DNA from: Acidimicrobiia bacterium
GTDB taxonomy: Bacteria > Actinomycetota > Acidimicrobiia > Spongiisociales > ZC4RG35
Assembly: GCA_012270885.1 (NCBI GenBank)
Contig: JAAXHN010000013.1
Location: 1,432 to 65,431 of the forward strand
Direction: 5' to 3'
DNA length: 64,000 nucleotides
Position 1 is the first letter of the stretch; each line of letters begins with the position of its first letter. The notes below the pieces were generated by a model. The model saw only the letters and a list, made by a program, of their open reading frames with translations, did no database searches and was not told the DNA's origin. The translations under genes were made by a program, and so were the position numbers. Positions 9,784 through 37,735 of this stretch are shown here, piece by piece.

Positions 9784-10898
9784 ATGAGGATACTGAACGG
9801 GATTGACCGGTTCAGGGTGGTGTTCGACGACGAGTCTCTGGTGGCCGCTGCGGGGTTGCTGGTGGCGGGAACGTTGATGAAGAGGTTGGGGTTGGAGGGC
9901 CTGTTGGACGAGACCGTACGGTTGGGAGACCGCCCGGGGGAGCCCGTCCGGGAAGGAAAGTCCTGTCTTTGGTGGCTTCGATGCTGACCGGGGGTTCTCA
10001 TATCGATCATGCCGACCGGCTGCGGGTCGGGTCCACTCAGCGGGTGTTGCCGTTTCGGGTGATGGCCCCTTCCACATTGGGAACGTTTCTGCGTTCGTTC
10101 ACGTGGGGTCATGTCCGCCAAATGGACAAGGCCTTGGAAGAGACGCTGAGGAGAGCCTGGTCCGCGGGTGGGGGTCCCCGAGAGGATGCGCCGGTGACCA
10201 TTGATGTGGACTCCACTGTTTGTGAAGTGGCGGGTAACACCAAAGCGGGCGCTCATTATGGGTACACGGGACAGTTGGGATATCACCCATTGTTGGCAGC
10301 CCGAGCAGATACCGGGGAGATCGTCCATTCCCGCCTCCGGGGCGGTTCCTCGCAAAAAAGGCATTACCCGTTTGTTGTGAAGACGGTGAACCGTGTCAGA
10401 CGGGCAGGAGCCCGGGGTCCGCTCACGGTACGAGCCGATGCGGGGTTTTGGTCCTATCGCCTGGTCGAGGACATGGAACGTCTCCGGGTCGGGTGGTCGA
10501 TCACCATAGGCCAACATTCGCAGGTCAAAGCAGCAATCGCCAACATTGAGGACACCGCGTGGCAACAGATCGACTATCCCGAAGGTGGAGTAGCCGAGGT
10601 CGCAGAAACCGCGATTGTTGCCTCCAAGAAATGGAAGCATCGTCGAATCCGGGTGGTGGTGCGCCGCACCCGTCTCACCGACCCCGAACATGCGCAGTTG
10701 TGGCCCGACTGGCGATACCACGCCTTCGCCACCAACAGTGAACTGTCCCCGGTAGAAGCAGACACCCACCACCGGGCCCACGCCCGAATGGAACTGGCCA
10801 TACGAGACATCAAACAAAACGCCGGCCTCTCCCACTGTCCCTCCGCACCGCACGCTCACGCAACTCGGTCGGATACCTACCAGAATTATTGGCCATGA
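9784..10898 (+). pseudogene. IS1380-family transposase, frameshifted near 9950 and 3'-truncated
   Basis: The N-terminal part (MRILNGIDRFRVVFDDESLVAAAGLL...) is in the 9679 frame. The body (SMLTGGSHIDHADRLR...APSTLGTFLRSFTWGHVRQMD...YGYTGQLGYHPLLA...VRADAGFW) is in the 9969 frame. Similarity ends at ...AGLSHCPS, without the usual C-terminal third. Confidence 0.7.
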
Positions 10899-10959
10899 GA
10901 CTCCATCCTCTCAAGATAGAAAGCCTCCACAAAAGCCGAGGGGATTCAGTTTTGTGGAG

Positions 10960-11834
10960 TTAGCTCACTTGGGTGAGGGGTGTGAGGGTTCGGTTGTCGT
11001 AGTGGGTGTTTTCGTGTTCGATGGGGGTGAGCATGTCGAGTGAGGTGTGGCGCCGGCGGCGGTTGTGGAAGATTTCTAGGTATTCGAAGATAGCGTTGGC
11101 GAGTTCGATGCGGGTCGTCCAGCGTTTTCGGTCTAGCAGTTCGACTTGCATACGTGCCCAGAACGCTTCTGTGAGGGCGTTATCGAAACAGTCCCCGACG
11201 GTCACCGATCGAGGGAACCAGTCCGGAGTCGTGGGCTCGTTGAGTGAACCCCCAGCAGGGTGCATCTGGGTGCCCTGGTCGGAATGTATCACAGTCCCCG
11301 GGTGGGGTTGGCGGTTCTCAAATTGTCATACCCAACGCGGAGGTCACCAAACTCGAGGTGGCCGTGTTGTCGATCGATGAGCCCACGACCCGGCGGCTGA
11401 ACACGTCCAAAACGACAGCACAGAATCACCCTGGCTTCCCGGGTGGGATGTTCCGTTATATCGGTCACCCACAACTGGTCCGGTTTGGAACGGGCGAAGT
11501 TGCGGTCTACCAAGTCGACAGGGGTGTCGACGGGACGGGGCCGTCTTCTGGGTCTTCGGCTACCGCTGAGACCAGCTATTCCGGCTCTTCTCATCAGCAT
11601 CGCCACCGCGTTGTGCCCAACTGTGATCTGATGACCCAACCGCAACTCGGCATGTACCCGCCGCGCTCCATAGGTACCGCGTGACTGGTGATGGATCTGA
11701 CAGATGATGTCGGTCAGCCAGGCGTGACGGATAGACCGGGCCGACGGCGGACGGGACCGCCAGGCATAGAACCCCGACTGTGACACACCCAGCACCCGGC
11801 AAGCCACCTGTACGGGCAGCCGCTCGGTTCTCAT
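10960..11834 (-). pseudogene. IS3-family transposase OrfB (integrase core), multiple frameshifts, OrfA missing
   Basis: N-terminal segment ...GTYGARRVHAELRLGHQITVGHNAVAMLMRRAG...DQLWVTDITEHPT, then loss of frame. C-terminal segment IHSDQGTQ...VGDCFDNALTEAFWARMQVELLDRKRWTTRIELANAIFEYLEIFHNRRRRHTSL is in another frame, with a further internal shift. There is no OrfA upstream (above 11834). Confidence 0.75.
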
Positions 11835-11896: not shown

Positions 11897-12607
11897 TTGC
11901 CCGAAGGACAATCGGGGTATCGCCAGATAAGGGTCTCCCAACGCGACGTTCAAAAAGCACATGAGCGCGCCGAGGCCAGCTTTCAAGACTCACAGAAGGC
12001 CTTCGAGGCGAAGGTGTCCGACGGCCTCAAAACCATGGCTGATAGTGCTCGTAGCTACTCAGAACAACTGGCAGAGCTGCTGGAAAACGTCCAAGAGCAA
12101 AAAACGGATGCGTCAGAGGCGATAGGCGACCTGCTCAACAAATTGCAGAAAGAGTACGGTTTCGTTGCTTCGCAAGTGCTCGGGGAAGCACATGGCAAGG
12201 CGGCTCCGGTTGAGCGATCGACTGCCGACGCCCACAAGAAACGAGCAAGGAATTACTCACTGTGGGCAGCTGTCGCGGCTGTGCTCGTCATTGCCCAAGA
12301 TCGAGTAGCGCAGGTCATGGGCTGGTGGACAAACGACTGGGACCAATGGTTTGACATCTTCAGGTCCCTCCCCGTCCTGGGGAGTCCCGTGGCTATCCTG
12401 ATCTTCCTAGCAGTCCGAGAAGGACAATCGGCAAAGACTCATTCTGCGCATCATGCCAGGTTGCAGAGCCTCGAACTGCAACTCAAGTCTTGGGAACCTT
12501 ACCTGAGCACCCTGAACGAGGAAACGCGGGTGCAAATGGAAAGGGAAGTCACTCCCAAGTTGTTCGTCGGGGATGTTGGAGCAACCCACCTACCTACGCA
12601 GGAGTAG
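11897..12607 (+). CDS. Hypothetical two-TM membrane protein with N-terminal coiled-coil region (5' end possibly truncated by the IS remnant)
   Basis: Lower-G+C ORF convergent with the DndE-like gene. Helical charged N-terminus and two hydrophobic segments (YSLWAAVAAVLVIAQ, LPVLGSPVAILIFLAV). Only a TTG start is available directly after an in-frame stop. Confidence 0.45.
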   Translation: MPEGQSGYRQIRVSQRDVQKAHERAEASFQDSQKAFEAKVSDGLKTMADSARSYSEQLAELLENVQEQKTDASEAIGDLLNKLQKEYGFVASQVLGEAHGKAAPVERSTADAHKKRARNYSLWAAVAAVLVIAQDRVAQVMGWWTNDWDQWFDIFRSLPVLGSPVAILIFLAVREGQSAKTHSAHHARLQSLELQLKSWEPYLSTLNEETRVQMEREVTPKLFVGDVGATHLPTQE

Positions 12608-12770: not shown

Positions 12771-13148
12771 TCAGTCAGGGAAACCCACTTCGGGGAGGAG
12801 GTCCGAAATGGAGCCGATTGCGCCCGAACGGAGCGCTTCGGCAATGGCAAGGAGTCCCTTGTTGGCAAGAGTTTCCACAGCGTAATAAGGCTCGTCTAGT
12901 TCACCATAAAGGGCTACAACCAACCCCTCGATTCTCCTGTCCGGGTCGAGAGTCCCTGTGTTAGCGGTGTAATTGTCCTTGCTGCCGGGTACGCCAAAGT
13001 TGTCAGGCCGATCGAGATCGAATCCATGGGTAACCGCGTAAGCGAACCCCAGTCTGACGAGGTCTGCTCTTTCGGGCATGTTGAAGCTGTCCATCTGCTT
13101 TGATGCCGCTGTACCAGCAGGTGTTAGAGCTACGGTTGTCTTGGGCAT
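12771..13148 (-). CDS. DndE-like small protein (last gene of the candidate system)
   Basis: 125 aa. Its start lies 1 nt after the stop of the DndD-like gene. The pattern ...ADLVRLGFAYAV...TGTLDPDRRIEGLVVALYG...VETLANKGLLAIAEAL...SISDLL resembles the DndE family (PF08870) as I recall it. Needs a profile search. Confidence 0.45.
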   Translation of the reverse strand: MPKTTVALTPAGTAASKQMDSFNMPERADLVRLGFAYAVTHGFDLDRPDNFGVPGSKDNYTANTGTLDPDRRIEGLVVALYGELDEPYYAVETLANKGLLAIAEALRSGAIGSISDLLPEVGFPD

Positions 13149-13149
13149 C

Positions 13150-15081
13150 TTAGGAGGATCCTATCTTGAGGATTTCGGTGTGACGGGCAGACCTACGGGT
13201 TAGTTGTCTTTCACATAGGAGACTTGACTGCAAAGTGCTGTGCGCTTCCAGGGTTTTGATCTCGCCTTCGTGGACAAATACAACCACCTGTGCGGCGACA
13301 GTTGGGAGTGCCCTAAGGGTGTTGAGCTTGTGTTTCGGATCGAGTCGAGCGAAGGCCATGTCCATGAATATCGGGGCTTGTACAGGAGCGCAGCGCTGGA
13401 GGGCAGCGATGAGCGAGAGAGCCACGATGTGCTCGTACCCTGCCGATCGATGCGGTTCGAGTTCTCCGTCCCGGTGGACTATTGATAAGCCGTAGTCCTC
13501 GTTGATCGAGAGTCGGACAAAGTCCGGATCGGATCGGATCGACAGGAAAACCTCTGTGGCTTCATGTTCGACGCGTTGTGTGAGCTCCTTGCGGTACCTG
13601 TCGATAGCGTCTGAGTAAAGGCGTTGAAGGCTTGTGAGAAGATGCTGCTTCCTAGTTGCCACCCTTCCCTCCTCGCCACTGCCCTGTGCGATAATAGCTG
13701 CTAGACGTTTTGCCTCTTCGGCGTATTCGTCTCGTTTCTCTACAGCTTCTTGGAGGGCCTCTCGGTTGATGCGTAACTGCACCTTGGTGTTAGCTAGTTT
13801 CTTTGGAAGGTCGGAAAGGACGGGCTCGTCAAGGCCTTCGACTTGCTCCTCCGCTTCGGCTAGGTCAGAAGCAAGGTCGTGGACCTTCATAGCCATATCT
13901 TGTAGAGTCCTGTTTCTTTCGTCCAAGCGCGCAACGGCAGCAGGATCCAAGACTCGCTCCAGTGACTGGATACGAGACCTAATCGCCTCCAGGGCAGCTC
14001 TTTGGTCGTGAGCGGACTGGACACCTTCGATTCCTGGATGGAGCGCGGGCTGAAGGCAACACGGGCACTCGCCCGTTTCGTCAAGCTCCTTTCGGAGTTG
14101 GATCAGTTGCTGCTCTCGATCAAAGACATGTTGCGCCAGTTCAAGCCCCTCACGTTCCGCCCTTAACTTGTCAAGCTTCGTTTCAAGTGTTGGCGTGAGG
14201 ACGGCGGTCCACGCCTGCGGTGCAATCTCCTTGAACCTCTCGCGTGCAGATTCGAGTTCTTTCTTGGCCTCCTTGTGAGCTCTGGCTATCTGACGACGAG
14301 CATCGAGCAAATCTCGTGCTGTCTGAGAGTCGGTCATGTGCTGCTCGATCTCACTTCTCTCATCCTCTAGCTTCTTGATGGCCATTTCAATTTTGCTGAT
14401 GTCCTCATTTCGTTTTTCCAAGACTTTTTCCAGCTGCGGAAACTGCTTGACAGCTGCCGCAGCCTGCGCATCCTTCGTTCTCAGTTTTGAGATGACTTTG
14501 GTGTGTTCATCCGTGAGTGTCCGGAGGTCTTTAATTGCATTCTTCAAGACTGGGACACCGAGTATCCGCTCTATCGCCTTTTTCAGTTCCTCCCCTGCGG
14601 TCGGGTCGTGCAATAGATCCTCATAGCGGTTTAGGGCTTCGGCATCGAAAAGAAAAAACTGCTGGATTTCTTCGGGGATCATCTGCTGTAAGGTTGCCTG
14701 CGCGTCCTCGAAACTGAGAGCATCCGACTCTCGTATGACATCTAGGCGCCGCTTGAGTGTGTCGCCTTCAAGGATTACGGAGCGGGTCAATGTGTAGCAG
14801 TCGTGTCGCCAGTTGACCCTCGCTGTGACCCTGGCCATGACTGGTGCCCCGTTAGCCTCGGCGACGGCTTCTCGGTTTACCAAAAGCCGATCATCGCGAA
14901 TCTGGCCGTACCGCTCGAAGAACTTGCCGGTGAAAAGCCATCGAACGGAGTTGAAGATGGTGGTCTTCCCATAATTGTTGTCGCCGTAGATCACTGCGAC
15001 TCCATCTCGGTCAGGTAACTCGAGGGCCTGATTGCCTTTGAACGGGCCGAAGTTGGAGTATCCGATCCGGTGGAGTCTCAC
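13150..15081 (-). CDS. DndD-like SMC/Rad50-type ATPase
   Basis: 643 aa with a GTG start in a GTGA overlap with the upstream 63-aa ORF. N-terminal MRLHRIGYSNFGPFKG...YGDNNYGKTT (Walker A, about 14959-14988). Long charged heptad-rich middle with ETGECPCCLQP (14049-14083). C-terminal RSAGYEHIVALSLIAAL (signature-like) and IFMDMAFARLDPKHK...QVVVFVHEGEI, matching the DndD-type D-loop/RLD..H tail. Confidence 0.65.
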   Translation of the reverse strand: MRLHRIGYSNFGPFKGNQALELPDRDGVAVIYGDNNYGKTTIFNSVRWLFTGKFFERYGQIRDDRLLVNREAVAEANGAPVMARVTARVNWRHDCYTLTRSVILEGDTLKRRLDVIRESDALSFEDAQATLQQMIPEEIQQFFLFDAEALNRYEDLLHDPTAGEELKKAIERILGVPVLKNAIKDLRTLTDEHTKVISKLRTKDAQAAAAVKQFPQLEKVLEKRNEDISKIEMAIKKLEDERSEIEQHMTDSQTARDLLDARRQIARAHKEAKKELESARERFKEIAPQAWTAVLTPTLETKLDKLRAEREGLELAQHVFDREQQLIQLRKELDETGECPCCLQPALHPGIEGVQSAHDQRAALEAIRSRIQSLERVLDPAAVARLDERNRTLQDMAMKVHDLASDLAEAEEQVEGLDEPVLSDLPKKLANTKVQLRINREALQEAVEKRDEYAEEAKRLAAIIAQGSGEEGRVATRKQHLLTSLQRLYSDAIDRYRKELTQRVEHEATEVFLSIRSDPDFVRLSINEDYGLSIVHRDGELEPHRSAGYEHIVALSLIAALQRCAPVQAPIFMDMAFARLDPKHKLNTLRALPTVAAQVVVFVHEGEIKTLEAHSTLQSSLLCERQLTRRSARHTEILKIGSS

Positions 15082-15269
15082 TCTGCACCAAATTCGGCAA
15101 GAAAGGCATCGATGGCCTGCCTGAGTCGGGCGAGGACTTCCGACCGTCGATTGAGATGGCGCCGTTCGATTGTCAAAATTTCCGCCACGAGAACAGCATC
15201 AAGTTCAGAGTATTGAGCTGCCCGGAGAGCTTCGACGGTGTCCTGTAACTGTTCGCGCACTATTCCCAC
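15078..15269 (-). CDS. Hypothetical 63-aa helical protein, translationally coupled to the DndD-like gene
   Basis: GTG start at 15269 directly abutting the inverted-repeat element. Its stop overlaps the downstream start (GTGA). No recognisable motif. Confidence 0.4.
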   Translation of the reverse strand: MGIVREQLQDTVEALRAAQYSELDAVLVAEILTIERRHLNRRSEVLARLRQAIDAFLAEFGAE

Positions 15270-15272
15270 ATG

Positions 15273-15433
15273 TTAGACCCGAGTTTGGCGGGTGGTTTGG
15301 TGTTTCCCCAGGTCGGGGGGCGTACGCGAAAGGAGTGTTTCCACTACGTTGGGGGTTGGACCCTGGAATTCCCCCGCTTTTGCGGACTGAATCCCCCCAC
15401 CAAACCACTTGACCCGCCAAACTCGGGTTAGAG
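15273..15433. repeat. About 160-bp element bounded by long imperfect inverted repeats (MITE-like or structured RNA) inside the candidate operon
   Basis: Left arm 15277-15302, acccgagtttggcgggt-ggtttggtg. Its reverse complement is at 15398-15428 (caccaaacc-acttg-acccgccaaactcgggt): 17 + 9 identical nt with a 5-nt insertion. The G-run/C-run-rich interior has several alternative pairings. Confidence 0.7.
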
Positions 15434-15472
15434 CATTGGTTGACTTGGCGTCCAGCCGGTTCAAGCGAAGGA

Positions 15473-17587
15473 CTAGTCATCGTCGGCCTCGAACCCTCCG
15501 GAGACGTCCGGGTGGGTGAGGTCACCGCCAGCGTCGGCAAACGCTTGGTAAAGTGCGCCTACGCTTGCATTGGTAAAGGCGCTTCTGGCGAATTCGGCCG
15601 CGCGAGCTAGTTCGCCCAGAATCATTGATCGGCCGCTGGGCTCCAAGGGGGGTTCAGGAACGACAATCGTATCGTAGATCTCAGCGTATGGCTTGTCTTC
15701 CGCCCTGCGTAGAACACGACCTCTTCTCTGGATGAACTCCCGTGGGTTGCGGGACGATGCGAGGATCAAAGCGTGGGTCGCTACGGGAATGTCGACACCT
15801 TCGTCGAGGCAACGGATAGAAACGACCACCCCGCCATTGATGGCGAAGTTGTCCAAGGTGGCCGAACGGTTGCCGGTCATGGCGGAGTGATACTCGGTAA
15901 CCGGAAGGTTTGCGTCAAGAAGTTCCGTAACGACCTCCCGGAGCTGGTCCTGATCCTCGCAGTAAACCAACCACCGCTGGCCTTCGCGGAAATGGTCGCT
16001 CACCACGGACCGAGCGAGGGGTATCTTTGCCGTCGCTTTCTTGATCACCCGCCCCCTTCGTATGAAGAGGCCTTTCACCAGCGGATGTTGCAGCACCTGG
16101 TCTTGCGGGTCATCAGCATCACCGTAACGCGCTATTAGACGTGAAATCCGTTTCGAAAGTTCGTTCCATTGTTTCTGTTCGTGATCAGAAAGACGTACGA
16201 CATAGGGTTCATAGGTGTACGGAGTGAGGATGGGAGGGTCGGTGTTTAGGGCGTCTTGCAACGTGAAGATGTCGATTATCCCATTGAAATACCCGATCAA
16301 CGCACTGGTGCCATCCGTATCTCCAGCTCGTTCCGGTGTTGCGCTAAGACCTAGGCGGGCGACCGCTGGTACGTCGAGAAGCTGTCGTGCCTGAGGCGCG
16401 CCGAGGCGGTGAACTTCGTCGGCGACGACAAACAAGCGACTAATCGTTCTCTTCAGGTGACCAAGGAACCTGGGAGAGGAAGCCGTCGTTATGGTGCTAA
16501 CAACAACTCGGTTTTCTTCCGTTTGTCTCAGCCAGGGTCCTAGCAAGTTGTTCCACTCCCTGTAGTCACCACCGCAGGGATGCACGCGAACACACAGGTC
16601 GCGCAGATGTTCACGGAGTTCGCCTGTCCATTGGTCGAGTAGGGCAACACTGGGGACAAGGACAACTGGACAGTGCCCGCGACGCAGTTCTCGTCGAATG
16701 GCCTCCATCGCCGTGAAGGTCTTCCCGGTAGCGGTGGCGTGTTTTATGAGACCGATCCGCCCGGCCGACTCCCAGGCTTCAATCGCCTTCTTCTGATGCG
16801 GCCGCAGGGTGAATCGTGCCAACGGCGCTGGTTGTTGGGATATACGCTTCTGAACTGCTAATTCTTCTGCTTTGATCTGCCAAGGATCACTTTCGGCAGC
16901 CACACGGCTGAACTCCTCTAAGGCGATGTTGGGAACCTCATGGACATCCACGCCCTGTGCCTCGCCCCGCCATAGCTTTTCAAACCTCTCCTTGTTTGAC
17001 GAAACGCGGTCGGTCTCTCGACCACCCGCCCAGGAAGTCCAAACGGTGATCGAGTCGACGTTTCCCCCGGGCGCGAAGCCGAGATACGTTTCATTGATGC
17101 CACCTCGGAACCCGATAGCATCATTGTTTGCGTCGAAGAACAACCCGGTCTTATCGTGAAACATCGCCTTTGATGATGACTCTGCATGTCGAGATCGCTG
17201 AGCGATGCGAATGTCAACTACACCGTCGACTATGAGGCCAGCAAGAGCCTTGGCTGGTTCAGAAAGGTAAGGGCTTTGCAAGAGACGTTTGTAATCCTCA
17301 AGGAGAACCTCAGCCAGTTCATTGCTCGTCAGAACCCGGTAGGCGTTTTCGATGGCTTGGGCGTCGGCGGCGCTAAGCGCAGGAGAGCAGATGATGCGGA
17401 TCTTGCCGCCGCGGGCAGCAAAGTTAACGATCTCAGCCCAAACGATGAGATACACTGCACTACTGAAATAGCCGCTGATTCGGTCATAGCGAATTGCGTC
17501 GCGCATACAAGGACGATAGAACTCAGCTGCCACGTCATGGTCGTCGGTGAAATACTCGGCGGCGGGTTCCCAGTCGCGGAAGGCCAT
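15473..17587 (-). CDS. PLD(HKD)-family nuclease domain fused to SF2 (DEAD/DEAH, ResIII-type) helicase
   Basis: 704 aa. A single HxK motif, AMFHDKTGLFFD...GGINET, lies at about residue 144 (near 17156). Helicase motifs HATATGKT (I), VVADEVHRLG (II), LGLSATPER (III), LDEGVDIP (V), QRRGRVLRR (VI). Confidence 0.85.
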   Translation of the reverse strand: MAFRDWEPAAEYFTDDHDVAAEFYRPCMRDAIRYDRISGYFSSAVYLIVWAEIVNFAARGGKIRIICSPALSAADAQAIENAYRVLTSNELAEVLLEDYKRLLQSPYLSEPAKALAGLIVDGVVDIRIAQRSRHAESSSKAMFHDKTGLFFDANNDAIGFRGGINETYLGFAPGGNVDSITVWTSWAGGRETDRVSSNKERFEKLWRGEAQGVDVHEVPNIALEEFSRVAAESDPWQIKAEELAVQKRISQQPAPLARFTLRPHQKKAIEAWESAGRIGLIKHATATGKTFTAMEAIRRELRRGHCPVVLVPSVALLDQWTGELREHLRDLCVRVHPCGGDYREWNNLLGPWLRQTEENRVVVSTITTASSPRFLGHLKRTISRLFVVADEVHRLGAPQARQLLDVPAVARLGLSATPERAGDTDGTSALIGYFNGIIDIFTLQDALNTDPPILTPYTYEPYVVRLSDHEQKQWNELSKRISRLIARYGDADDPQDQVLQHPLVKGLFIRRGRVIKKATAKIPLARSVVSDHFREGQRWLVYCEDQDQLREVVTELLDANLPVTEYHSAMTGNRSATLDNFAINGGVVVSIRCLDEGVDIPVATHALILASSRNPREFIQRRGRVLRRAEDKPYAEIYDTIVVPEPPLEPSGRSMILGELARAAEFARSAFTNASVGALYQAFADAGGDLTHPDVSGGFEADDD

Positions 17588-17588
17588 G

Positions 17589-18158
17589 TCAACGACCTCC
17601 CATGAGTGTCCTTTGAATGCCTAGCTTGAATCGTGTTTCGATGGCTTGTACCAGCGATGACCTGCGGCAGGTGACAATGCTCGCCGGTGTAGGGCCGAAA
17701 ATCGTCTTGCGGACGTACTTCGTGGACACCGAGACTCCGCTTACCACCGCCTCAGCTAGCGCCTCCACGGACACTCCCAGGTTGCGGGAATAAGAGATCC
17801 CCTCACGTACCATAAACAGCTCAGCATCCCACAGGATCCATGTTCGGAACTGTGCTGCGAACCCGCAGAACAAGACCAGCCTCCCAGGCTCACAGGGAAT
17901 GTGAATCCTAGCGCCACGGCGCCTGCCTGGCAACGTGATCTGAATCTTGTGTACCCCAATTTCCCGCTCGGTCGGAGCCGTAGCATGCCACAGGTAAGCC
18001 TGGATGCTGTGGCCTCCCGGTAGGGTTGCCAGAAGTGGTTTTTGACGGGGTTCGCTCTCCATAACAGAGGAGACGCCAAGGTCGTGACGAAACATAGCCT
18101 CAAGATCGGGTCGAGCGGATAAGCGCCCTCGCATCGCGTTACGGTGCCTTTCTCTCAA
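17589..18158 (-). CDS. Hypothetical protein (about 160-189 aa), directly upstream of and abutting the PLD-helicase gene
   Basis: The stop lies 1 nt from the helicase ATG. The ORF track start is TTG 18158; in-frame ATGs at 18134, 18095 and 18062 are alternatives. No motif recognised. The core reads ...GVHKIQITLPG...RIHIPCEPGRLVLFCGF...WILWDAELF... Confidence 0.5.
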   Translation of the reverse strand: MRERHRNAMRGRLSARPDLEAMFRHDLGVSSVMESEPRQKPLLATLPGGHSIQAYLWHATAPTEREIGVHKIQITLPGRRRGARIHIPCEPGRLVLFCGFAAQFRTWILWDAELFMVREGISYSRNLGVSVEALAEAVVSGVSVSTKYVRKTIFGPTPASIVTCRRSSLVQAIETRFKLGIQRTLMGGR

Positions 18159-18436
18159 GGATCATGGTTTGATGCGGATGTTGGCGCGCTTTGTCATGCT
18201 GAGAGGATGCTCGAAGTCGCCGAACTGGGTAAGCGTCGCTAACCCACGAATCGATTGTCGGAGCACTCACGGTCGGCTGTAGGTGCCTTGGGTGCGCCTG
18301 GTAGAGGCCTCGCAATGAGCTATCACGAGGCGATCCGGGCAGATTGAGAGATAGTTGCATCCGGTGTGGCCATTGGTCCTATTGCATCAAGCAGGTCTCA
18401 CGAAGAACAGTGATGTCCCCGTAGGGTTGTGAAGTG

Positions 18437-19318
18437 TCAGGGTAAAGGCTGGGCATCATAATTGCGGACAAAAAGCTCGCTACCCTTATCTCGACCTCCC
18501 CGGAAACCGTCCTGCTTTTTCAGTCCATTGCGTTGGTCGTCTGTACGATTGATCGTGTAGTTCCACTCCTGACCCTCTATCGAGGAGGCCCATCCGTACA
18601 GACTCCGAATGTCCGGGTGGTCGTCATAAGTGAGGAGAAACAGCAACCGGTTCCCATTGCGCTTTAGGCACTCTGCTAAGCGCTCATGATCGTCATGCTC
18701 AAAGACAGCATTGTAGAACTTTTCCTGGTCAGCTGCATAATAAGGGGGGTCAACAAACACGAAGCACCCATCGGGAAGCGCGTCAATGACCTCTTCAAAG
18801 TCGCAAGCGGACAGAACGACGCCTTGCAGCTTGTCTGACACGGTACGTAGATGTGGGGGCCAGTTCTCGGGTATCATCGAATACTTCCGCCCAAAACCCC
18901 AATAGCAGTTCTCCGGTCGCATGATCCCACTGTAAGACGTCCGGTTCAAATAGAACCATCGAAATGCTTTTTCCAAGTCGGTGCCGGGCGTGTAGTGATT
19001 CTTGTAGTACGTGTGGTTGGCTTTGGTGGCTTCCACTCCATCAAGAAGGCCAATCAGCCCTTCTACATCATCCCGGATCTGTTCTAAGGTGTTGATCACA
19101 CCGGTATCAAGGTCGTTCAGAATCGATGTTCCATCAGAAGTCGGCTTCGCAAAGAAGACACTGGCACCGCCAGCGAACGGTTCACAATAGTCATCATGGG
19201 GTGGTATCTCCCGCAGAATGAGACTGCGTGCATAGAACTTGCCGCCGGGATACCGGAAAGGGGAGTTGGACCTATTTGAACGCGGCAGTCCCACATTTGC
19301 TAAGGTCACTTCGTCCAC
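18437..19318 (-). CDS. Dam-family (D12 class, alpha) N6-adenine DNA methyltransferase
   Basis: FRYPGGK near the N-terminus, SAM motif EPFAGGASVF, catalytic DPPY at 18740-18751 (VFVDPPYY). Confidence 0.85.
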   Translation of the reverse strand: MDEVTLANVGLPRSNRSNSPFRYPGGKFYARSLILREIPPHDDYCEPFAGGASVFFAKPTSDGTSILNDLDTGVINTLEQIRDDVEGLIGLLDGVEATKANHTYYKNHYTPGTDLEKAFRWFYLNRTSYSGIMRPENCYWGFGRKYSMIPENWPPHLRTVSDKLQGVVLSACDFEEVIDALPDGCFVFVDPPYYAADQEKFYNAVFEHDDHERLAECLKRNGNRLLFLLTYDDHPDIRSLYGWASSIEGQEWNYTINRTDDQRNGLKKQDGFRGGRDKGSELFVRNYDAQPLP

Positions 19319-19925
19319 CCGGCACCATCGGCTTTCAGAAAACGGGACTGAAACCGTCCACCAATCGGCCGGAAAGCTAAAGCGGTCTCCTGAAATATGG
19401 CCATCGGGTCACGGGCGTTGGGTCCGAAAAAGTGAAGCTTCAGCATTTGCCCAAACAGCCCGTGCTTCCGCAATGCCTGACACCTAACGTAATGTGCCCA
19501 CTATTCTGCGGTATGACGCTCGTGGCTGACATGCTCTCCTAAGCACTTTCCGTCAACAATTACCCTAACGCTCAAGAGTGACAGAACGCTGACAATGTTA
19601 ACGATCGTCCCAGTTTGCCACCCTCTAGTTTTGCATTGACGCATCTCTTGTGGCATCGAAGACGCAGCCTTCACACAAGACGTTCGCGCCGAAGAGCGGG
19701 TAGAGCCCAATGAGAACCAGACGCCAGGAGCGGAATCGGCATGTCGGACCAGGGGTCGCGCGATCCGAAGCGCCGACTGCGATGCTCAGAGCGGCTTTGC
19801 CACCCCCTAAACAAGACCCCGGCCGGGCCATTCGTCGGCTGTTAACAGATACCCTGTCACGCTCGTCCGCAGCACCCACCCGGAGTGAAAACCATTGGTA
19901 TTCCTCGATCCTGGCGGTGGGTCGG

Positions 19926-19998
19926 TGGGGCCGGTGGGAATCGAACCCACGACCTCCGGGTTAAAAGCCCGTTGCTCTGCCAATTGAGCTACAGCCCC
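19926..19998 (-). tRNA. tRNA-Lys (anticodon UUU)
   Basis: Folded by hand on the reverse complement. Acceptor GGGGCUG/CGGCCCC, D-arm UAGCUCAAUUGGCAGAGC, anticodon loop CUUUUAA, T-arm GUGGG-UUCGAUU-CCCAC, discriminator A. CCA is not encoded (ACCG). Confidence 0.9.
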
Positions 19999-33743: not shown

Positions 33744-34322
33744 TTGTCGATGGTTTTGCCAATGCGGTTGCCGAGTCTTCTAGAGACAGTAGGGGCCGTT
33801 TACGGGATCGTGGTGCCCCCGGAGCGACTCTTCGCTTATGCCTATGGCATACTGGCTCAGCCAGCATACACGGAGCGATTCTGGGAAGAACTCGAGCACC
33901 CTCCACCACGGCTGCCAATCACTAGGGTCGACGGTCTCTTCCAGCGTGTCGCCGATCACGGTGCGCGGTTACTGAATTTACACACCTACGGTGAGCGATT
34001 TGCCGGTCCTGAGGACGACGGCTCGGCACCACAGGGAGAGGCACGCTGTGTTAAGGCCGTACCGCTCGACAAGTACCCGTTCGACTTCTCTTACGAACCG
34101 GGCAGTCACACCCTGCGAGTCGGCGATGGGGAGTTCTCACCGGTAAAACCCTGCGTCTGGAGCTTCTCCGTTTCTGGCTTACAGATCGTGAAGTCCTGGC
34201 TTGATTACCGCAAGCTAAAGCGGTCAGGACGAAAGTCGTCGCCCCTTGATGAAATCAGACCGGAGCGTTGGGATTTCACCGAAGAGCTACTTGAGTTGCT
34301 TGGGTTATCGAGGAGACGGTAA
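33744..34322 (+). pseudogene. C-terminal fragment of a type ISP restriction/modification-type N6-adenine methyltransferase
   Basis: ...LFAYAYGILAQPAYTERFWEELEHPPPRLPIT...LLNLHTYGE...VWSFSVSGLQIVKSWLDYRKLKRSGRKSSPLDEI... matches the C-terminal domain of type ISP / BREX PglX-like enzymes. The upstream >800 aa are absent. Confidence 0.6.
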
Positions 34323-34558: not shown

Positions 34559-35893
34559 TCAGCTTCCCAGATTCCGATGCAGTGTCTCTGCGACCGGGAA
34601 GAATCGATATTGCTTGCCCCCGTCGTGTAGCTCCAAGAACCCCCGTTTCTCGAGATCCAGTAGATCGGTCCGCGCCGTCTGGTAGGCGACTCGATGACTG
34701 GCCCGGTGGGCCTGGATGGTGTAGACCGCATCAAGATTCCTGATGGCGTGACTCAGAAGCGCCAACTGGCGACTATTGAGGTCGGGTTCCCTACGCAAGG
34801 CCCTTTCTATTAGGCGCACTTCCGCCACCTTTTCTTCCAGGGTCTCGAAGAGGTCCTCTATCGCCCGGCACAGCACGTCTAGCTGGTGTAGGAGGAAATA
34901 GGTGAAGTCCCCGTCGTCAGTCTCGCTGTAGAGAAAGGCCCTCTGGTATTGGACGGGAGCCTGGTAGAGCAAGCGAGATATCGATAGGAACTCCGCCAGC
35001 CAATATCCGTGTTGCCATAGAGAACGATAGAACAGGGCTCGCGCCGTTCTCCCATTGCCGTCCACAAAGGGATGGATATAAGCCAGTTGAAAGTGAAGGG
35101 CGATTGCCCTCACCACCGGATGCACGAATCCCCTGTCCTCAACCGCGTTGGCGAAGTCCACCAACTCCTGCATCCGGGCGGGCAATTCGTCAGCAGGAGG
35201 AGGACGGTGATAGATGTCGTTGGGATCGGGACCACTTACATAGACCCTCTTCTCACCGCTTTGCTGGAGCCGACCGACATCCTCCGGCCGATCCAAGGTC
35301 CCATCGGCCAGCATTCGATGGATGTCAAGCACCATATCCACCGTTAGTGGCGTCTCTGCGTGTCTGCGGAGATTCTGCATGGTGCGATAGTTGTTGACAA
35401 CCATGCGTTCGTCAATGGTTCGAGGAGATCTCTCTGAACGGAGCAGTTCCTTTGCATCGCGGCGGGTTGTGGCGGCTCCCTCGAGCAAGCTGGAGTTGAT
35501 GGCCTCCTCGATCAGTCCGGCCACGATGTATCGATCCCGGGTTGCCGAACTGGTCACGACCTCCGGCATCTGGATACGACCTGCCGCCTGCTGGTCGATC
35601 CGATGCAGCATCGAAAGCGCTTCATCAGTCAGGACGTAGCTGAATAGCTGCCCCCCGGTATCGGCGAACGGCAACATCCTGCGTGCCTGCGAACGAGCCA
35701 TCTTGACGCCGAACCACCACTCCTCTGACGAAAAGCCGCCAGGAGGTGTACGGCGACGAAGCTCCTCCCAGTGGTAGTAGCGGCCATTTACAGAAGGCCG
35801 AGAGTGGTCACTGAACAGGATTGCCGCAGCTTGATCTCCACTGAGTGTTTGGAGAATCTCCTCGACGGCCGGACCTTTGGCTGGAATCCTCAT
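34559..35893 (-). CDS. Fic family protein (putative AMPylase) with intramolecular inhibitory motif
   Basis: Canonical HPFVDGNGRTAR. An N-terminal SSLLEG fits the (S/T)xxxE(G/N) inhibitory helix. The C-terminal region looks like a winged helix. Confidence 0.85.
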   Translation of the reverse strand: MRIPAKGPAVEEILQTLSGDQAAAILFSDHSRPSVNGRYYHWEELRRRTPPGGFSSEEWWFGVKMARSQARRMLPFADTGGQLFSYVLTDEALSMLHRIDQQAAGRIQMPEVVTSSATRDRYIVAGLIEEAINSSLLEGAATTRRDAKELLRSERSPRTIDERMVVNNYRTMQNLRRHAETPLTVDMVLDIHRMLADGTLDRPEDVGRLQQSGEKRVYVSGPDPNDIYHRPPPADELPARMQELVDFANAVEDRGFVHPVVRAIALHFQLAYIHPFVDGNGRTARALFYRSLWQHGYWLAEFLSISRLLYQAPVQYQRAFLYSETDDGDFTYFLLHQLDVLCRAIEDLFETLEEKVAEVRLIERALRREPDLNSRQLALLSHAIRNLDAVYTIQAHRASHRVAYQTARTDLLDLEKRGFLELHDGGKQYRFFPVAETLHRNLGS

Positions 35894-36108: not shown

Positions 36109-36507
36109 TTACTCGGTGGCGTTGATCCGGTTGATGGGGCCCGGCCAGTCGAGAATGAGCCGATCGGCGGTCATCAGCCGATGTCCTTCCAGGGCGGTGG
36201 CCACGATCAGGCGGTCCGCCGGGTCGCCGTGCAACTCGGGAAGAAGTCCGGCGCGAGCCGCTATCGCGCCATCCACGGGGACCTCGATCAGTCCCTCGTC
36301 GAGGAGGTCGCGCCGCCAGGCTCCCAGGTCGATCCGCAAGTCCAGACCACCCTTCCGGAGCCGCATGCTGACTTCCCAGAAGGAGATCCCCGACACCGCC
36401 GCGCTTCCTTCCTCCACCGCACCGTCCAACAGACGGCGTGACTTCGGGCCCAGCCGGCGGTCTCCCCTCTCCTGCCACACCAGGACATGGGTGTCGAGGA
36501 GTATCAA
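36109..36507 (-). CDS. vapC: PIN-domain toxin VapC
   Basis: The TTG start overlaps the antitoxin stop (TTGA). ILLDTHVLVW...(D)...ADRLIVATAL shows the PIN acidic residues. The N-terminal 26 aa of the track ORF were rejected. Confidence 0.8.
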   Translation of the reverse strand: MILLDTHVLVWQERGDRRLGPKSRRLLDGAVEEGSAAVSGISFWEVSMRLRKGGLDLRIDLGAWRRDLLDEGLIEVPVDGAIAARAGLLPELHGDPADRLIVATALEGHRLMTADRLILDWPGPINRINATE

Positions 36508-36782
36508 AACAGGTCCTCTCCGTGACTGGGAGAATCTTCGAACCACGCAGCAGGCATGGGAGAGACGATGTCCCCGTTGATGCAAATGTTCTCCCGGTTG
36601 CGGCCGAAAGTCATCCTCGGCTTGTCCTGGTAAGGAACCAGACGCGATACAGGGCGGCCGTGCTTGGTGATGACCAGCCCCTCACCGCTTGCCGCCACCT
36701 CGTCCATGAGCTTCAGGCACTTGGCCTTGAACTCCGAAGCCTTGATCTTCCGCGGTCTGACGATCTTCTCCCCAGCAGGCAT
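36504..36782 (-). CDS. Phd/YefM-type antitoxin
   Basis: IKASEFKAKCLKLMDEVAASGEGLVITKHGRPVSRLVP is typical of Phd/YefM. It is coupled to the PIN gene. Confidence 0.8.
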   Translation of the reverse strand: MPAGEKIVRPRKIKASEFKAKCLKLMDEVAASGEGLVITKHGRPVSRLVPYQDKPRMTFGRNRENICINGDIVSPMPAAWFEDSPSHGEDLF

Positions 36783-36794
36783 GACTCTCTCCTA

Positions 36795-36860
36795 TCGTTT
36801 ATGACCACTATCGTGCTTTGATATGACTATAGTCACTATCTACAGCAATAGTGACCATAT
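36795..36860. promoter_or_regulatory. Palindrome cluster upstream of the Phd/VapC operon (candidate autoregulatory operator)
   Basis: Perfect palindrome gactatagtc (36825-36834), flanked by tatgaccactat and atagtgaccata, which are imperfect inverted copies. Confidence 0.4.
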
Positions 36861-36907
36861 TTTCCCCGGGCCCATCACCAAACTGAAGGAGTCCGGTCCA
36901 TGATTCG

Positions 36908-37318
36908 CTAAGGGACCACTTTGAAGCGACCGCCGTTGAGGGGGCGCAGCACGTTGAAGTGCCTTTTGTCCAGAGTGAGTATGGTGCGGGTGCGGTAACG
37001 CTCGGCGAGCACCACCAGGGAGGCGTCGGTTATGCCGACGCCCAAGTCGAGATAGCGTTCCACCACCTCGGTGGCGGCCACAAGGTCATCGGCATCCATG
37101 GTGGCGAGGTGATAGGCCCCACCCGTCAATTCCCGTAGTATCTCCAACTCCCACTGCACGCCCAGTCGAGTCGCCACCAGGTAATCGATCTCGGCGACCA
37201 CGAACGGAGACACCACCATGACCGGGTCCTTGGCCTCAATCCAAGTAGCGATTGCTTCATGATCGGGATCCGATTCGTTGAAATAGGGGATCAGGCCGCT
37301 GGTGTCAGCGATGATCAC
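36908..37318 (-). CDS. vapC: PIN-domain toxin VapC
   Basis: MIIADTSGLI...SPFVVAEIDYL...DASLVVLAE...TLDKRHF. 4-nt overlap with the antitoxin. Confidence 0.85.
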   Translation of the reverse strand: MIIADTSGLIPYFNESDPDHEAIATWIEAKDPVMVVSPFVVAEIDYLVATRLGVQWELEILRELTGGAYHLATMDADDLVAATEVVERYLDLGVGITDASLVVLAERYRTRTILTLDKRHFNVLRPLNGGRFKVVP

Positions 37319-37533
37319 CTCTCGCCGAATCCCTTCATGTACTCATCGATGTTTCTTCCCCATAGTTCGTCGCTCGAAAGAATTCCGGGCCGGGGCTTGG
37401 GACGGGCCACCGCCTCCTCGAGGGCCTGACGAATCACCTCGGCTTCAGAGCAAGAGCGTAGAAGTGCTACGCGCGCCACGTCGCGCTTCAATGACTCCGG
37501 GAGGTAGATCGTGGTCTTGATCATGCCATACAT
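37315..37533 (-). CDS. vapB: Ribbon-helix-helix (CopG-type) antitoxin VapB
   Basis: MYGMIKTTIYLPESLKRDVARVALLRSCSEAEVIRQALEE is an RHH pattern. The track ORF start at 37758 was rejected as an Arg-rich extension overlapping the divergent gene. Confidence 0.75.
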   Translation of the reverse strand: MYGMIKTTIYLPESLKRDVARVALLRSCSEAEVIRQALEEAVARPKPRPGILSSDELWGRNIDEYMKGFGER

Positions 37534-37735
37534 AGTACCACCCGTCGCAGGGCCGAACCGGTCGCTATTGGGGCTGGAAGTCGTCTTGGTCTTACCCATC
37601 CGCCAATTCTGCAATGAAACGGGTACGTCTCGGCGCCTGCCGGGCCGGAGATCTTCGCACCTTTCGGTTCTTTTGCCCAGTCCGGCCTGATGAGCCCGTA
37701 GCCAGATCCTCCGGTCGGCAACTAGCCTGAGGCGG

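Follow-up and report, generated by a model that had tools for sequence, protein, structure and literature searches.

Gene Content and Setting of the Locus

Six intact open reading frames (ORFs), all on the minus strand, occupy positions 12771-19318 of the 64-kb window, i.e., the whole stretch of DNA that was analyzed. Their checked coordinates are exactly those of a first-pass annotation made from the sequence alone, and the tight junctions described there are present as well: 1 nt separates the MTaX1 and PbeA genes, pbeB and pbeC overlap by 4 nt (GTGA), and another 1-nt gap lies between pbeC and pbeD. The block had also been described as lower in G+C, which agrees with its G+C content of 0.53-0.58, compared to 0.64-0.69 in the flanks, and with its GC3 of 0.58-0.62, compared to 0.77-0.92 in host genes. 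The insertion sequence (IS) wreckage and the tRNA gene that were named as its flanks were both recovered. The IS debris consists of a truncated DDE_Tnp_1_4 ORF (9969-10898) and a split IS3-like HTH_21/rve pair (10960-11834), and a tRNA-Lys(ttt) gene is located at 19924-19998 on the minus strand. An att-like repeat of this tRNA gene was looked for and none was seen; no integrase was found either.

The Dam-Like Methylase and MTaX1

The gene at 18437-19318 (minus strand) encodes a Dam-family (D12 class) DNA adenine-N6 methyltransferase of 293 aa, as judged from Pfam MethyltransfD12, TIGR00571 and its motifs. The protein matches MethyltransfD12 with 92.8 bits over profile positions 1-241 of 253 and TIGR00571 (dam) with 106.9 bits, slightly below the cut-off of 114.85. 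Its relatives in the PDB, identified by sequence, are all adenine-specific (7m6b, DpnM, E. coli Dam, and T4 Dam). It contains the EPFAGG and DPPY motifs, the latter being shared by its two closest relatives, and the presence of DPPY in a non-permuted Dam/D12 enzyme predicts adenine-N6 methylation. We propose that this enzyme is the self-marking component. It is separated from MTaX1 by approximately 340 bp and has a conserved leader of its own (19319-19604, minus strand), as a blastn match to L006, the closest related locus (80% identity), extends to window position 19604. This leader is probably a promoter or regulatory region; only weak pseudo-ORF similarity was found in it, and its reading as a gene is not convincing.

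MTaX1 (methylase-associated X1; Pfam PF20296) is encoded at 17589-18095 on the minus strand. The reading frame stays open as far as 18158 (17589-18158, 189 aa), but the true start is most likely M22, giving a protein of 168 aa, the length of the database gene call P0157. MTaX1 scores 29.7 bits against PF20296 (cut-off 25). Its AF2 model (pLDDT 88.7) has a mixed beta/alpha fold, for which no confident match was obtained in the PDB, the top match being the PD-(D/E)xK enzyme I-Ssp6803I (probability 0.5-0.75, TM 0.38-0.45).

The PbeABCD Core

PbeA (15473-17587, minus strand, 704 aa) combines an N-terminal HKD (PLD-family) nuclease domain with an SF2 (ResIII/Helicase_C) translocase. The PADLOC PbeA profile PDLC02707 matches residues 3-672 (E 1.2e-190), Pfam detects ResIII, Helicase_C and, weakly, PLDc_2, and TIGR04095 (dnd_restrict_1) gives 308 bits, under its cut-off of 600. 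The helicase part additionally matches the LlaGI/LlaBIII, EcoAI and XPB families weakly. Invariant among 17 homologues (42-83% identity) are H144-D-K146, N165-E166, GKT 288-290, DExH 390-393, SAT 415-417 and QRRGR 620-624.

PbeB (15078-15269, minus strand, 63 aa) is the system's small protein ('SP'), assigned by its position, its size and the 4-nt overlap with pbeC. Homologues of 59-65 aa are found at this position in every close locus, and Pfam Sp-DndD matches below threshold (E 0.048). The gap of 203 bp between pbeA and pbeB is not the original spacer: it contains a MITE-like insertion of 152 bp (15277-15428, no strand) with perfect 17-nt terminal inverted repeats, and the alignment shows no such insertion in L005 or L006. 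The element is present in a single copy within the window, and its RNA fold has an energy of -84.2 kcal/mol (z -6.5). Located between pbeA and pbeB, it could lower the expression of pbeBCD.

PbeC (13150-15081, minus strand, 643 aa) is a coiled-coil ABC ATPase with a cysteine hook, matched by the PADLOC PbeC profile PDLC02747 over residues 2-608 (E 3e-135), whereas it reaches only 130.5 bits against TIGR03185 (DndD; cut-off 245.85). Both cysteines of its C-P-x-C motif, C339 and C342, are invariant in 73 of 73 homologues. Conservation in these homologues extends to Walker A, D574, the RLD loop (R579-L-D581) and H584. The motifs quoted in the first-pass annotation for PbeA, PbeC and the methylase (DPPY) are accordingly present and conserved.

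PbeD (12771-13148, minus strand, 125 aa) is a DndE-like protein with two ribbon-helix-helix (RHH) repeats. Neither PF08870 nor DndE chains match it by sequence, and PF08870 matches none of PbeD and 79 relatives. Its AF2 model (pLDDT 89) consists of two beta-alpha-alpha units, and the 16 best PDB matches in Foldseek are all DndE (4lrv, 5wtu, 7x4e; probability 0.99-1.00, TM 0.64-0.73). Structure thus supports the DndE-like reading given in the first-pass annotation. As a weak lead, the DndE-like PbeD seems to track the methylase type.

Distribution and Selection

A PbeA relative is encoded in 420 species genomes. In approximately 77 of the best 80 loci, an MTaX1 relative lies directly upstream of PbeA and PbeC and PbeD lie downstream, so that the order MTaX1-PbeA-(B)-C-D recurs in other genomes. 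DNA methylases predominate among the neighbors of these 80 loci: N6_N4_Mtase matches 71 of the 112 proteins upstream and 21 of the 142 that lie downstream or on the opposite strand. The 25 most frequent families of each neighbor list include no phosphorothioation family (e.g., PAPS_reduct, desulfurase).

The closest clade comprises 13 loci with an either/or choice of methylase. Six of them (the window, L005, L006, L089, L092, and L093) carry a D12 methylase on their upstream side and lack an N6_N4 enzyme, and seven (L003, L085-L088, L090, and L091) have a convergent N6_N4 methylase of 329-334 aa downstream and no D12 enzyme. None of the 13 has two intact methylases or lacks one, and L005 still carries a 33-aa vestige of the methylase it has lost. 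The flanks vary from locus to locus, which indicates transfer of the cassette as a whole. Purifying selection acts on each of the six genes (dN/dS 0.05-0.24), with values of 0.07-0.10 for the methylase (against L005 and L006) and 0.19-0.24 for PbeB. As dS is similar among the genes, including the methylase and the pbe genes, this selection implies that the methylase is co-inherited.

Relation to Described Systems

The block is a member of the described PbeABCD or CxC-ABC/DndE anti-virus system, with a Dam-like methylase replacing DNA sulfur modification. Profile and PADLOC searches name the core as PbeA and PbeC, and Pfam identifies MTaX1 and MethyltransfD12. The pbeABCD genes were named by Xiong et al. 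(2019; PMC6459918), and that paper counts 155 of 320 'solitary' pbeAC pairs as adjoining methyltransferase genes. According to Rakesh et al. (2024; PMC10853773), PbeABCD is the CxC ABC ATPase-DndE system of Krishnan et al. (2020), some neighborhoods of which contain methylases and MTaX1 instead of phosphorothioation genes. The first-pass annotation had presented the locus as an unnamed, undescribed system. In view of the full-length PADLOC matches to PbeA and PbeC and the descriptions in both papers, the gene set is already named and the claim of novelty fails. The functional half of that interpretation holds: profiles and structure support a DndD/DndE-type pair coupled to adenine methylation and a PLD(HKD)-SF2 helicase-nuclease, and, as it had stated, sulfur-insertion genes are missing, since Pfam scans of 37 ORFs of the window found no PAPS_reduct, cysteine desulfurase or DndB.

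As Rakesh et al. [quoted passage not shown] In the subfamily of the window, the conserved cysteines take the form C-P-x-C. The sole departure from the published variants is the methylase class: cytosine-5 and circularly permuted cytosine-N4 methylases in those papers, a non-permuted Dam/D12 enzyme with DPPY here. No experiments on any methylase-coupled Pbe system were found in the literature searched. The DndCDEA-PbeABCD system of Haloterrigena jeotgali A29, as presented in the available portion of PMC6459918, shares the pbeA-B-C-D order, a small PbeD and a PbeB of similar size (66 aa, compared to 63 aa here), and the PADLOC Pbe profiles match the proteins of the window at full length. However, that system adjoins dndCDEA and is phosphorothioate-dependent, whereas the window has a methylase and MTaX1 (a gene not mentioned in that portion) and has no dnd genes close by. 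The approximately 10^4-fold protection reported for the Haloterrigena system requires all four pbe genes, and modified virus escapes it.

Compared to canonical DndABCDE, the PbeD model can be superposed on crystal structures of DndE, but PbeC stays at 130 bits against a DndD equivalog cut-off of 246, PbeD lacks a PF08870 match, and DndA, DndB and DndC are absent from the window. With Type I, Type III, Type ISP and PLD-helicase (CglI/NgoAVII type) restriction, the block shares a nuclease joined to an SF2 translocase and a methylase guard. It differs from them in having no HsdS/HsdM or Mod subunit; its nuclease is HKD and not PD-(D/E)xK, and recognition is presumably performed by the ABC ATPase-RHH pair.

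Proposed Working and Alternatives

The Dam-like D12 enzyme would mark host DNA by adenine methylation at its own motif, standing in for the DndCDEA phosphorothioation of the characterized archaeal system. PbeC may dimerize via its cysteine hook and, together with the two-RHH PbeD, form an ATP-driven unit for DNA scanning and site recognition, in parallel to DndD-DndE. On meeting unmarked DNA, this unit would engage PbeA, whose SF2 motor is expected to translocate and whose single HKD domain would have to pair with a second copy to build an active site; DNA would then be cut or its replication blocked. MTaX1, which appears to be translationally coupled to pbeA, probably helps to distinguish modified from unmodified DNA or connects the methylase to the restriction complex, and PbeB is probably a regulator. 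The analysis shows what each part is, that the catalytic residues and the five-gene core are conserved, that the cassette is strictly paired with one methylase or the other, and that selection is purifying; the order of these events and the role of MTaX1 are what we infer from the parts. The same applies to cutting as opposed to mere blocking, because in the only tested Pbe system, according to PMC6459918, viral DNA showed no visible cutting.

We consider it likely that the block was acquired horizontally, is intact, and represents a PbeABCD/CxC-ABC-ATPase-DndE defense cassette of the methylase-plus-MTaX1 form that works in this way. The methylase could instead be an orphan with no tie to the cassette, or be left over from a separate Type II system, and merely lie beside a 'solitary' MTaX1-PbeABCD core that reads no modification, e.g., an abortive-infection device freed when a phage factor removes PbeB. 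The spacing of approximately 340 bp and the separate conserved leader fit such an arrangement, as do the plasmid-borne enzyme most closely related to the methylase (57% identity), which lies on a small Acinetobacter plasmid without pbe genes, and the suicide mode by self-DNA cleavage, with the small protein as negative regulator, that Rakesh et al. (PMC10853773) offer as one alternative. This explanation is nevertheless unlikely, given that D12 and N6_N4 enzymes are strictly mutually exclusive in the 13 close loci, none of which is without a methylase, that the methylase equals the pbe genes in dS under strong purifying selection and travels with the cassette into differing flanks, and that no endonuclease gene accompanies it at the locus.

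Decay into a non-functional relic within an IS-ridden island might be suspected from the IS fragments at 9969-11834, the MITE-like insertion within the operon and the lack of both an integrase and an att repeat. The six frames, however, are full-length with sizes matching their homologs, the catalytic residues are intact, dN/dS is low throughout and the insertion is intergenic, which makes decay very unlikely. It is hardly credible that we are dealing with a classical PbeABCD that depends on phosphorothioate, with dndCDEA elsewhere in the genome and an irrelevant methylase. The only experimentally tested Pbe system does depend on phosphorothioation, according to PMC6459918, and the absence of dnd genes refers to one 64-kb window and not to the genome. 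Against this stand the 37 scanned ORFs without a dnd modification gene, the absence of PAPS_reduct and desulfurase from the 25 commonest neighbor families of the 80 related loci, and the PbeA subfamily of the window, which is nearly always preceded by MTaX1, with methylases alongside.

Identity and Published Relatives

The six genes at 12771–19318 of the window constitute a PbeABCD system, alternatively named CxC ABC ATPase-DndE, in its methylase/MTaX1 form, and belong to a known family rather than to a new system. Its unusual trait is a methylase of the Dam type. The first-pass annotation had regarded the set as undescribed. This claim fails, as two of the proteins match PbeA and PbeC of PADLOC over their full length and the literature already names the set, an outcome that the annotation itself had foreseen as fatal to its claim. 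Its functional intuition, that a DndD/DndE-type pair is coupled to adenine methylation and a PLD (phospholipase D-family) helicase, was a good one in view of the identities of the parts.

The pbeABCD genes were named by Xiong et al. (2019; PMC6459918). In that study, a haloarchaeal dndCDEA-pbeABCD system lowers virus plating approximately 10^4-fold, all four pbe genes matter, phosphorothioate-modified virus escapes and the viral DNA is not visibly degraded. Of 553 pbeAC pairs, 320 lack dnd genes, and 155 of these 320 lie at most 10 kb from methyltransferase genes, a proximity from which a pairing of pbeAC with methylation was suggested; the supplements, as far as available, do not state the methylase classes (PMC6459918). 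The same system was described in 2020 by the laboratory of Rakesh et al. as "CxC ABC ATPase-DndE," with PbeA as a nuclease-SF2 helicase carrying the HKD motif of PLD-family nucleases, PbeB as a small protein, PbeC as the CxC ATPase and PbeD as the cognate DndE (PMC10853773). In some neighborhoods, cytosine-5 and/or permuted cytosine-N4 methylases replace the phosphorothioation genes, often together with MTaX1 (methylase-associated X1; PMC10853773). A 2025 review takes the same view and terms the restriction event "obscure." The literature searched yielded no experiment on methylase-coupled Pbe; the one version tested there is archaeal and phosphorothioate-linked (PMC6459918). The descriptions of Xiong et al. 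(2019) and Rakesh et al. (2024) thus make the gene set a named and described system.

Compared with the Haloterrigena-type PbeABCD, as presented by Xiong et al. (2019), the PbeA-B-C-D core is the same, but there it adjoins dndCDEA and here a D12 (Dam-like adenine) methylase and MTaX1; no adjacent dndCDEA occurs within the window. The methylase form of the CxC ABC ATPase-DndE system (Krishnan, 2020; Rakesh et al., 2024) has the CxC motif, the DndE of two RHH units and MTaX1 in common with the cassette and differs in methylase class, since neither a cytosine-5 nor a permuted cytosine-N4 methylase is linked here and a D12/Dam enzyme of another class is present. The cassette also differs from canonical DndABCDE: PbeC scores under the DndD cut-off, PbeD lacks PF08870, and DndC and DndA were not found here.

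Layout, Composition and Borders

All six reading frames lie on the minus strand, exactly where the first-pass annotation had placed them: the D12 methylase (18437–19318, 293 aa), MTaX1 (17589–18158, 189 aa), PbeA (15473–17587, 704 aa), PbeB (15078–15269, 63 aa), PbeC (13150–15081, 643 aa) and PbeD (12771–13148, 125 aa). The tight junctions were also read correctly, with a 1-nt gap between MTaX1 and pbeA, a 4-nt overlap of pbeB with pbeC, and pbeD beginning 1 nt past pbeC. The block is compositionally foreign to the window flanks, with a G+C content of 0.53–0.58 against 0.64–0.69, and a third-position G+C of 0.58–0.62 against 0.77–0.92 in the surrounding housekeeping genes. Pfam and tRNA calls, together with these G+C values, bear out the low-G+C block, the insertion sequence wreckage and the tRNA-Lys of the annotation: a truncated DDE transposase ORF and a split IS3-type HTH_21/rve pair occupy 9969–11834, and tRNA-Lys(ttt), the sole Rfam match, lies at 19924–19998. 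A search for a tRNA-derived att repeat yielded none, and no integrase was found either, so the island is not delimitable by att sites. DNA homology of the relatives to the window ends at 12789 and approximately 19604. Scans for consensus promoters and terminators gave background levels.

The DNA upstream of the methylase (19319–19604) is 80% conserved with the related locus L006, and a weak pseudo-peptide, YVRCQAL, is common to it, L005 and L006. A seventh gene at this place was rejected on account of the low similarity and of a break in the reading frame within the window; a regulatory leader is the more likely interpretation. The spacer between pbeA and pbeB holds a 152-bp element (15277–15428) with perfect 17-nt terminal inverted repeats (ACCCGAGTTTGGCGGGT) and CTA on either side. 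It is absent in L005 and L006, has no other copy in the window, and as RNA has a folding energy of -84 kcal/mol (z -6.5). The element resembles a MITE and may exert a polar effect on pbeBCD.

The Pbe Proteins and MTaX1

The 704-aa protein corresponds to PADLOC PbeA (E 1.2e-190, residues 3–672). Its Pfam domains are ResIII, Helicase_C and, weakly, PLDc_2, i.e., the PLD/HKD nuclease joined to a ResIII/DEAD helicase that characterizes PbeA, and the NCBIfam domain "DNA phosphorothioation system restriction enzyme" matches its helicase part under the equivalog cut-off. The single HKD motif H144-D-K146 with N165-E166, as well as the Walker A GKT, DExH, SAT and QRRGR motifs, are invariant in 17 homologs of 42–83% identity. 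The slot between pbeA and pbeC, where PbeABCD systems carry a protein of approximately 60–66 aa, holds an ORF of 59–65 aa in every close locus; the 63-aa ORF of the window has a sub-threshold match to Pfam "Sp-DndD," a small protein of Dnd-type systems.

The 643-aa protein corresponds to PADLOC PbeC (E 3e-135, residues 2–608) and matches Pfam AAA_23, as expected of the SMC-like ABC ATPase of approximately 640 aa in PbeABCD. LmuB, by which the protein would point to Lamassu, ranks only 25th (E 6e-26), and for none of the cassette proteins does PADLOC-DB 2.0.0 (2023), which may lack MADS, list an Hma or Drm model. With TIGR03185, the DndD equivalog model, the score is 130.5 bits against a cut-off of 245.85, so that PbeC is related to DndD but distinct from it. 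Among 73 homologs, Walker A, the Walker B aspartate, the R-L-D loop and the H-loop histidine are conserved. C339 and C342 (C-P-x-C), in the middle of both the coiled coil and the protein, are invariant in 73/73 and by sequence would represent the paired cysteines of the CxC ABC ATPases.

As in other PbeABCD systems, a small protein directly follows pbeC. For this 125-aa PbeD, Pfam, NCBIfam, PADLOC and PDB sequences gave no sequence match, and phmmer and two profile searches all failed to link it to DndE among PDB sequences. A profile of the family recovered 86 clusters among 1.84 billion representatives, and 0/80 scanned members match the Pfam DndE model (PF08870). An AlphaFold2 model (30 homologs, pLDDT 89) predicts two beta-alpha-alpha units, in keeping with a cognate DndE homolog of two RHH repeats, and the top 16 PDB entries retrieved with it by Foldseek are without exception crystal structures of DndE (probability 0.99–1.00, TM 0.64–0.73). 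The DndE-like call of the annotation is thereby upheld at the level of structure. With no match in sequence, the relation to DndE is one of predicted structure, which agrees with the high divergence published for DndE partners of the CxC ABC ATPase clade (PMC10853773).

The 189-aa ORF matches Pfam MTaX1 (PF20296) at 29.7 bits against a gathering cut-off of 25; in the public gene call, the identical protein begins at M22 and has 168 aa. As in the CxC ABC ATPase-DndE system, in which an MTaX1 gene lies nearby, a relative stands immediately upstream of PbeA in approximately 77 of the best 80 of 420 PbeA loci. A fold search of the MTaX1 model against the PDB gave no confident match, and the hint of a restriction-endonuclease-like fold was too weak and was set aside. 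In other loci, MTaX1 also takes longer forms, and extra copies adjoin methylase genes. Forms of 312–370 aa with an N-terminal extension occur in L003 (4579–5679), L087 (4887–5999) and L091 (141–1079), one of them with a weak DUF8426 match. ORFs of approximately 326–345 aa directly follow pbeD in many Acidimicrobiales and alphaproteobacterial versions (L031, L035, L053, L061, L063, L066, L068, L069, L072, L075, L076); these are probably second MTaX1 copies, and 12 downstream proteins across the set match MTaX1.

Distribution and Search for Sulfur-Modification Genes

A scan of one genome per species, with an alignment as query, found a PbeA relative in 420 species genomes; the PbeA sequence alone gave no matches in the same scan. 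The two nearest relatives (78% and 83% identity) come from sponge-associated or marine Acidimicrobiia-type MAGs. Among the best 80 of these 420 loci, PbeC and PbeD follow PbeA in nearly all those of sufficient length. The statement of the annotation that sulfur-insertion genes are missing stands within the window, where none of 37 Pfam-scanned ORFs is DndC, DndA or DndB. Likewise, no phosphorothioation family is found among the 25 commonest families of either the upstream or the downstream/opposite-strand neighbors of the 80 loci. A dependence of the cassette on phosphorothioation by dnd genes elsewhere in the genome, against which these two surveys speak, is accordingly given hardly any probability.

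Methylase Pairing and Proposed Exchange

Pfam assigns the 293-aa protein, which has a DPPY motif, to the Dam-family D12 methyltransferases (92.8 bits), and every sequence relative of known structure is adenine-specific. Such full-length Dam-like enzymes are rare among the best 80 loci, in which N6_N4_Mtase, the other methylase class (N6_N4), accounts for 71/112 upstream same-strand genes, mostly with SPPY or SPPF and often in tandem pairs. Downstream or on the opposite strand, 21 of 142 neighbors are N6_N4_Mtase and 12 are extra MTaX1. Seven of nine upstream MethyltransfD12 hits were not counted as Dam-like, being giant alphaproteobacterial HTH and double-methylase proteins that touch the D12 profile only by the AdoMet-binding motif. 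Single upstream proteins of 1247–1293 aa are present in the alphaproteobacterial L032, L049, L059, L068, L069, L072 and L076; that of L068, the sole one scanned, has an HTH and two methylase modules (two DPPF motifs).

In the closest clade, comprising 13 loci with PbeA 67–83% identical to that of the window, the two classes are strictly separated. The window, L005, L006, L089, L092 and L093 have an upstream, co-directional D12 methylase and no N6_N4 enzyme, and L003, L085–L088, L090 and L091 have a convergent N6_N4 methylase of 329–334 aa overlapping the pbeD end and no D12 enzyme. None of the 13 loci has two intact methylases and none has neither. Following pbeD, L005 retains 33 aa of the C-terminus of an N6_N4 methylase (14669–14767, minus strand; 73% identical, E 2.5e-9). 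On sequence grounds this remnant is taken as the footprint of a methylase replacement, and it suggests that the D12 arrangement descends from the N6_N4 one.

The flanking genes differ in every locus of this clade and, together with the ends of DNA homology, this indicates that the cassette moves as one piece. Comparison of the window with L005 or L006 gives a dN/dS of 0.05–0.24 for all six genes, i.e., purifying selection, and dS is similar between the methylase and the pbe genes. The either/or pattern, the differing flanks and these substitution rates argue that the linked methylase is obligatory, that the Dam-like enzyme is its cognate form here and that the cassette is functional. The methylase might still be an unrelated neighbor of a pbe core that acts without reading its mark, as its separate leader and the published suicide model would allow; the either/or pattern and the co-inheritance with the pbe genes make this improbable. 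That the cassette is a dead relic, as the insertion sequence debris and the 152-bp insertion within the operon might suggest, is very improbable given the intact reading frames and the low dN/dS.

Neighbor-joining trees were constructed for PbeA, PbeB, PbeC, MTaX1 and PbeD of the 13 loci. In the first four, the N6_N4-linked L090 is sister to the D12-linked L005, and the PbeD tree splits cleanly into D12 and N6_N4. Identities between L005 and L090 are 0.89 for PbeA, 0.89 for PbeB, 0.84 for PbeC, 0.86 for MTaX1 and 0.82 for PbeD, and PbeD of L005 is 0.86 identical to that of the window. Columns 13, 65, 100 and 120 of PbeD discriminate the classes; position 65 (G versus A/S) adjoins the predicted second RHH strand. 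The notion that PbeD, the DndE-like protein, goes with the type of methylase rather than with the tree of the remaining proteins is a lead and not a result, drawn from a small sample of 13 loci and rather doubtful at present. With so few loci, and with pbeD directly adjoining the convergent methylase, the pattern might instead reflect recombination of a block of pbeD and methylase; the DNA identity profile has only a modest dip over pbeD. The combined proposition, that within one narrow clade MTaX1-PbeABC (70–89% identical) exchanged its methylase, D12 or N6_N4 in a strict either/or manner, with PbeD following, is similarly tentative. The split is in line with a published proposal in which the site is determined by the DndE partner. 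If true, PbeD would be the interchangeable part that sets specificity or matches the modification in a restriction machine that is itself modification-agnostic, and the natural D12/N6_N4 pairs would offer a direct swap comparison.

Proposed Mode of Action

The following order of events, including the cutting step, may be proposed on the model of ATP-dependent restriction enzymes and of the phosphorothioate-linked system that has been tested. The Dam-like enzyme would mark host DNA, and a PbeC dimer, joined at its cysteine hook, would scan DNA together with PbeD and recognize sites. Unmarked DNA would trigger PbeA, which would translocate on DNA and assemble an active site from its single HKD domain and that of another copy, with the DNA being cut or replication blocked. 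Nuc and the BfiI-type PLD nucleases are established examples of such pairing of single HKD domains. PbeB may have a regulatory role. MTaX1, translationally coupled to pbeA, plausibly helps to discriminate modified DNA, a role that has been suggested in literature (PMC10853773).

Methylase-coupled Pbe is widespread, and the mode of action of the archaeal phosphorothioate-linked version is disputed. The cassette extends a described family by one member and by a variant in methylase class. Compact and intact, with a simple Dam-type methylase among its six genes, it lends itself to cloning. Together with relatives that combine the other methylase with a near-identical core, it could help to identify the component that reads the modification and to show if DNA is cleaved.

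Other Features of the Window

Convergent with pbeD lies a 236-aa ORF (11897–12607, plus strand) whose N-terminal half reads by eye as coiled coil and whose C-terminal half reads as hydrophobic. ZorA (NCBIfam, E 2.8e-5) and PADLOC PDC-M40C match it weakly and in part, and it was rejected as a component because it is absent beside the cassette in other loci. Further away, a 192-aa ORF (33744–34322, plus strand) matches only the last 160 positions of a Type ISP restriction-enzyme C-terminal specificity domain (E 1e-35) and is, by this partial match, probably a gene fragment. Beside it are a Fic-domain protein and ORFs that by eye resemble PIN-toxin/antitoxin genes; this neighborhood, which takes in 34559–35893 and 36109–37758 (both minus strand), may be a second small defense or addiction patch in the window.
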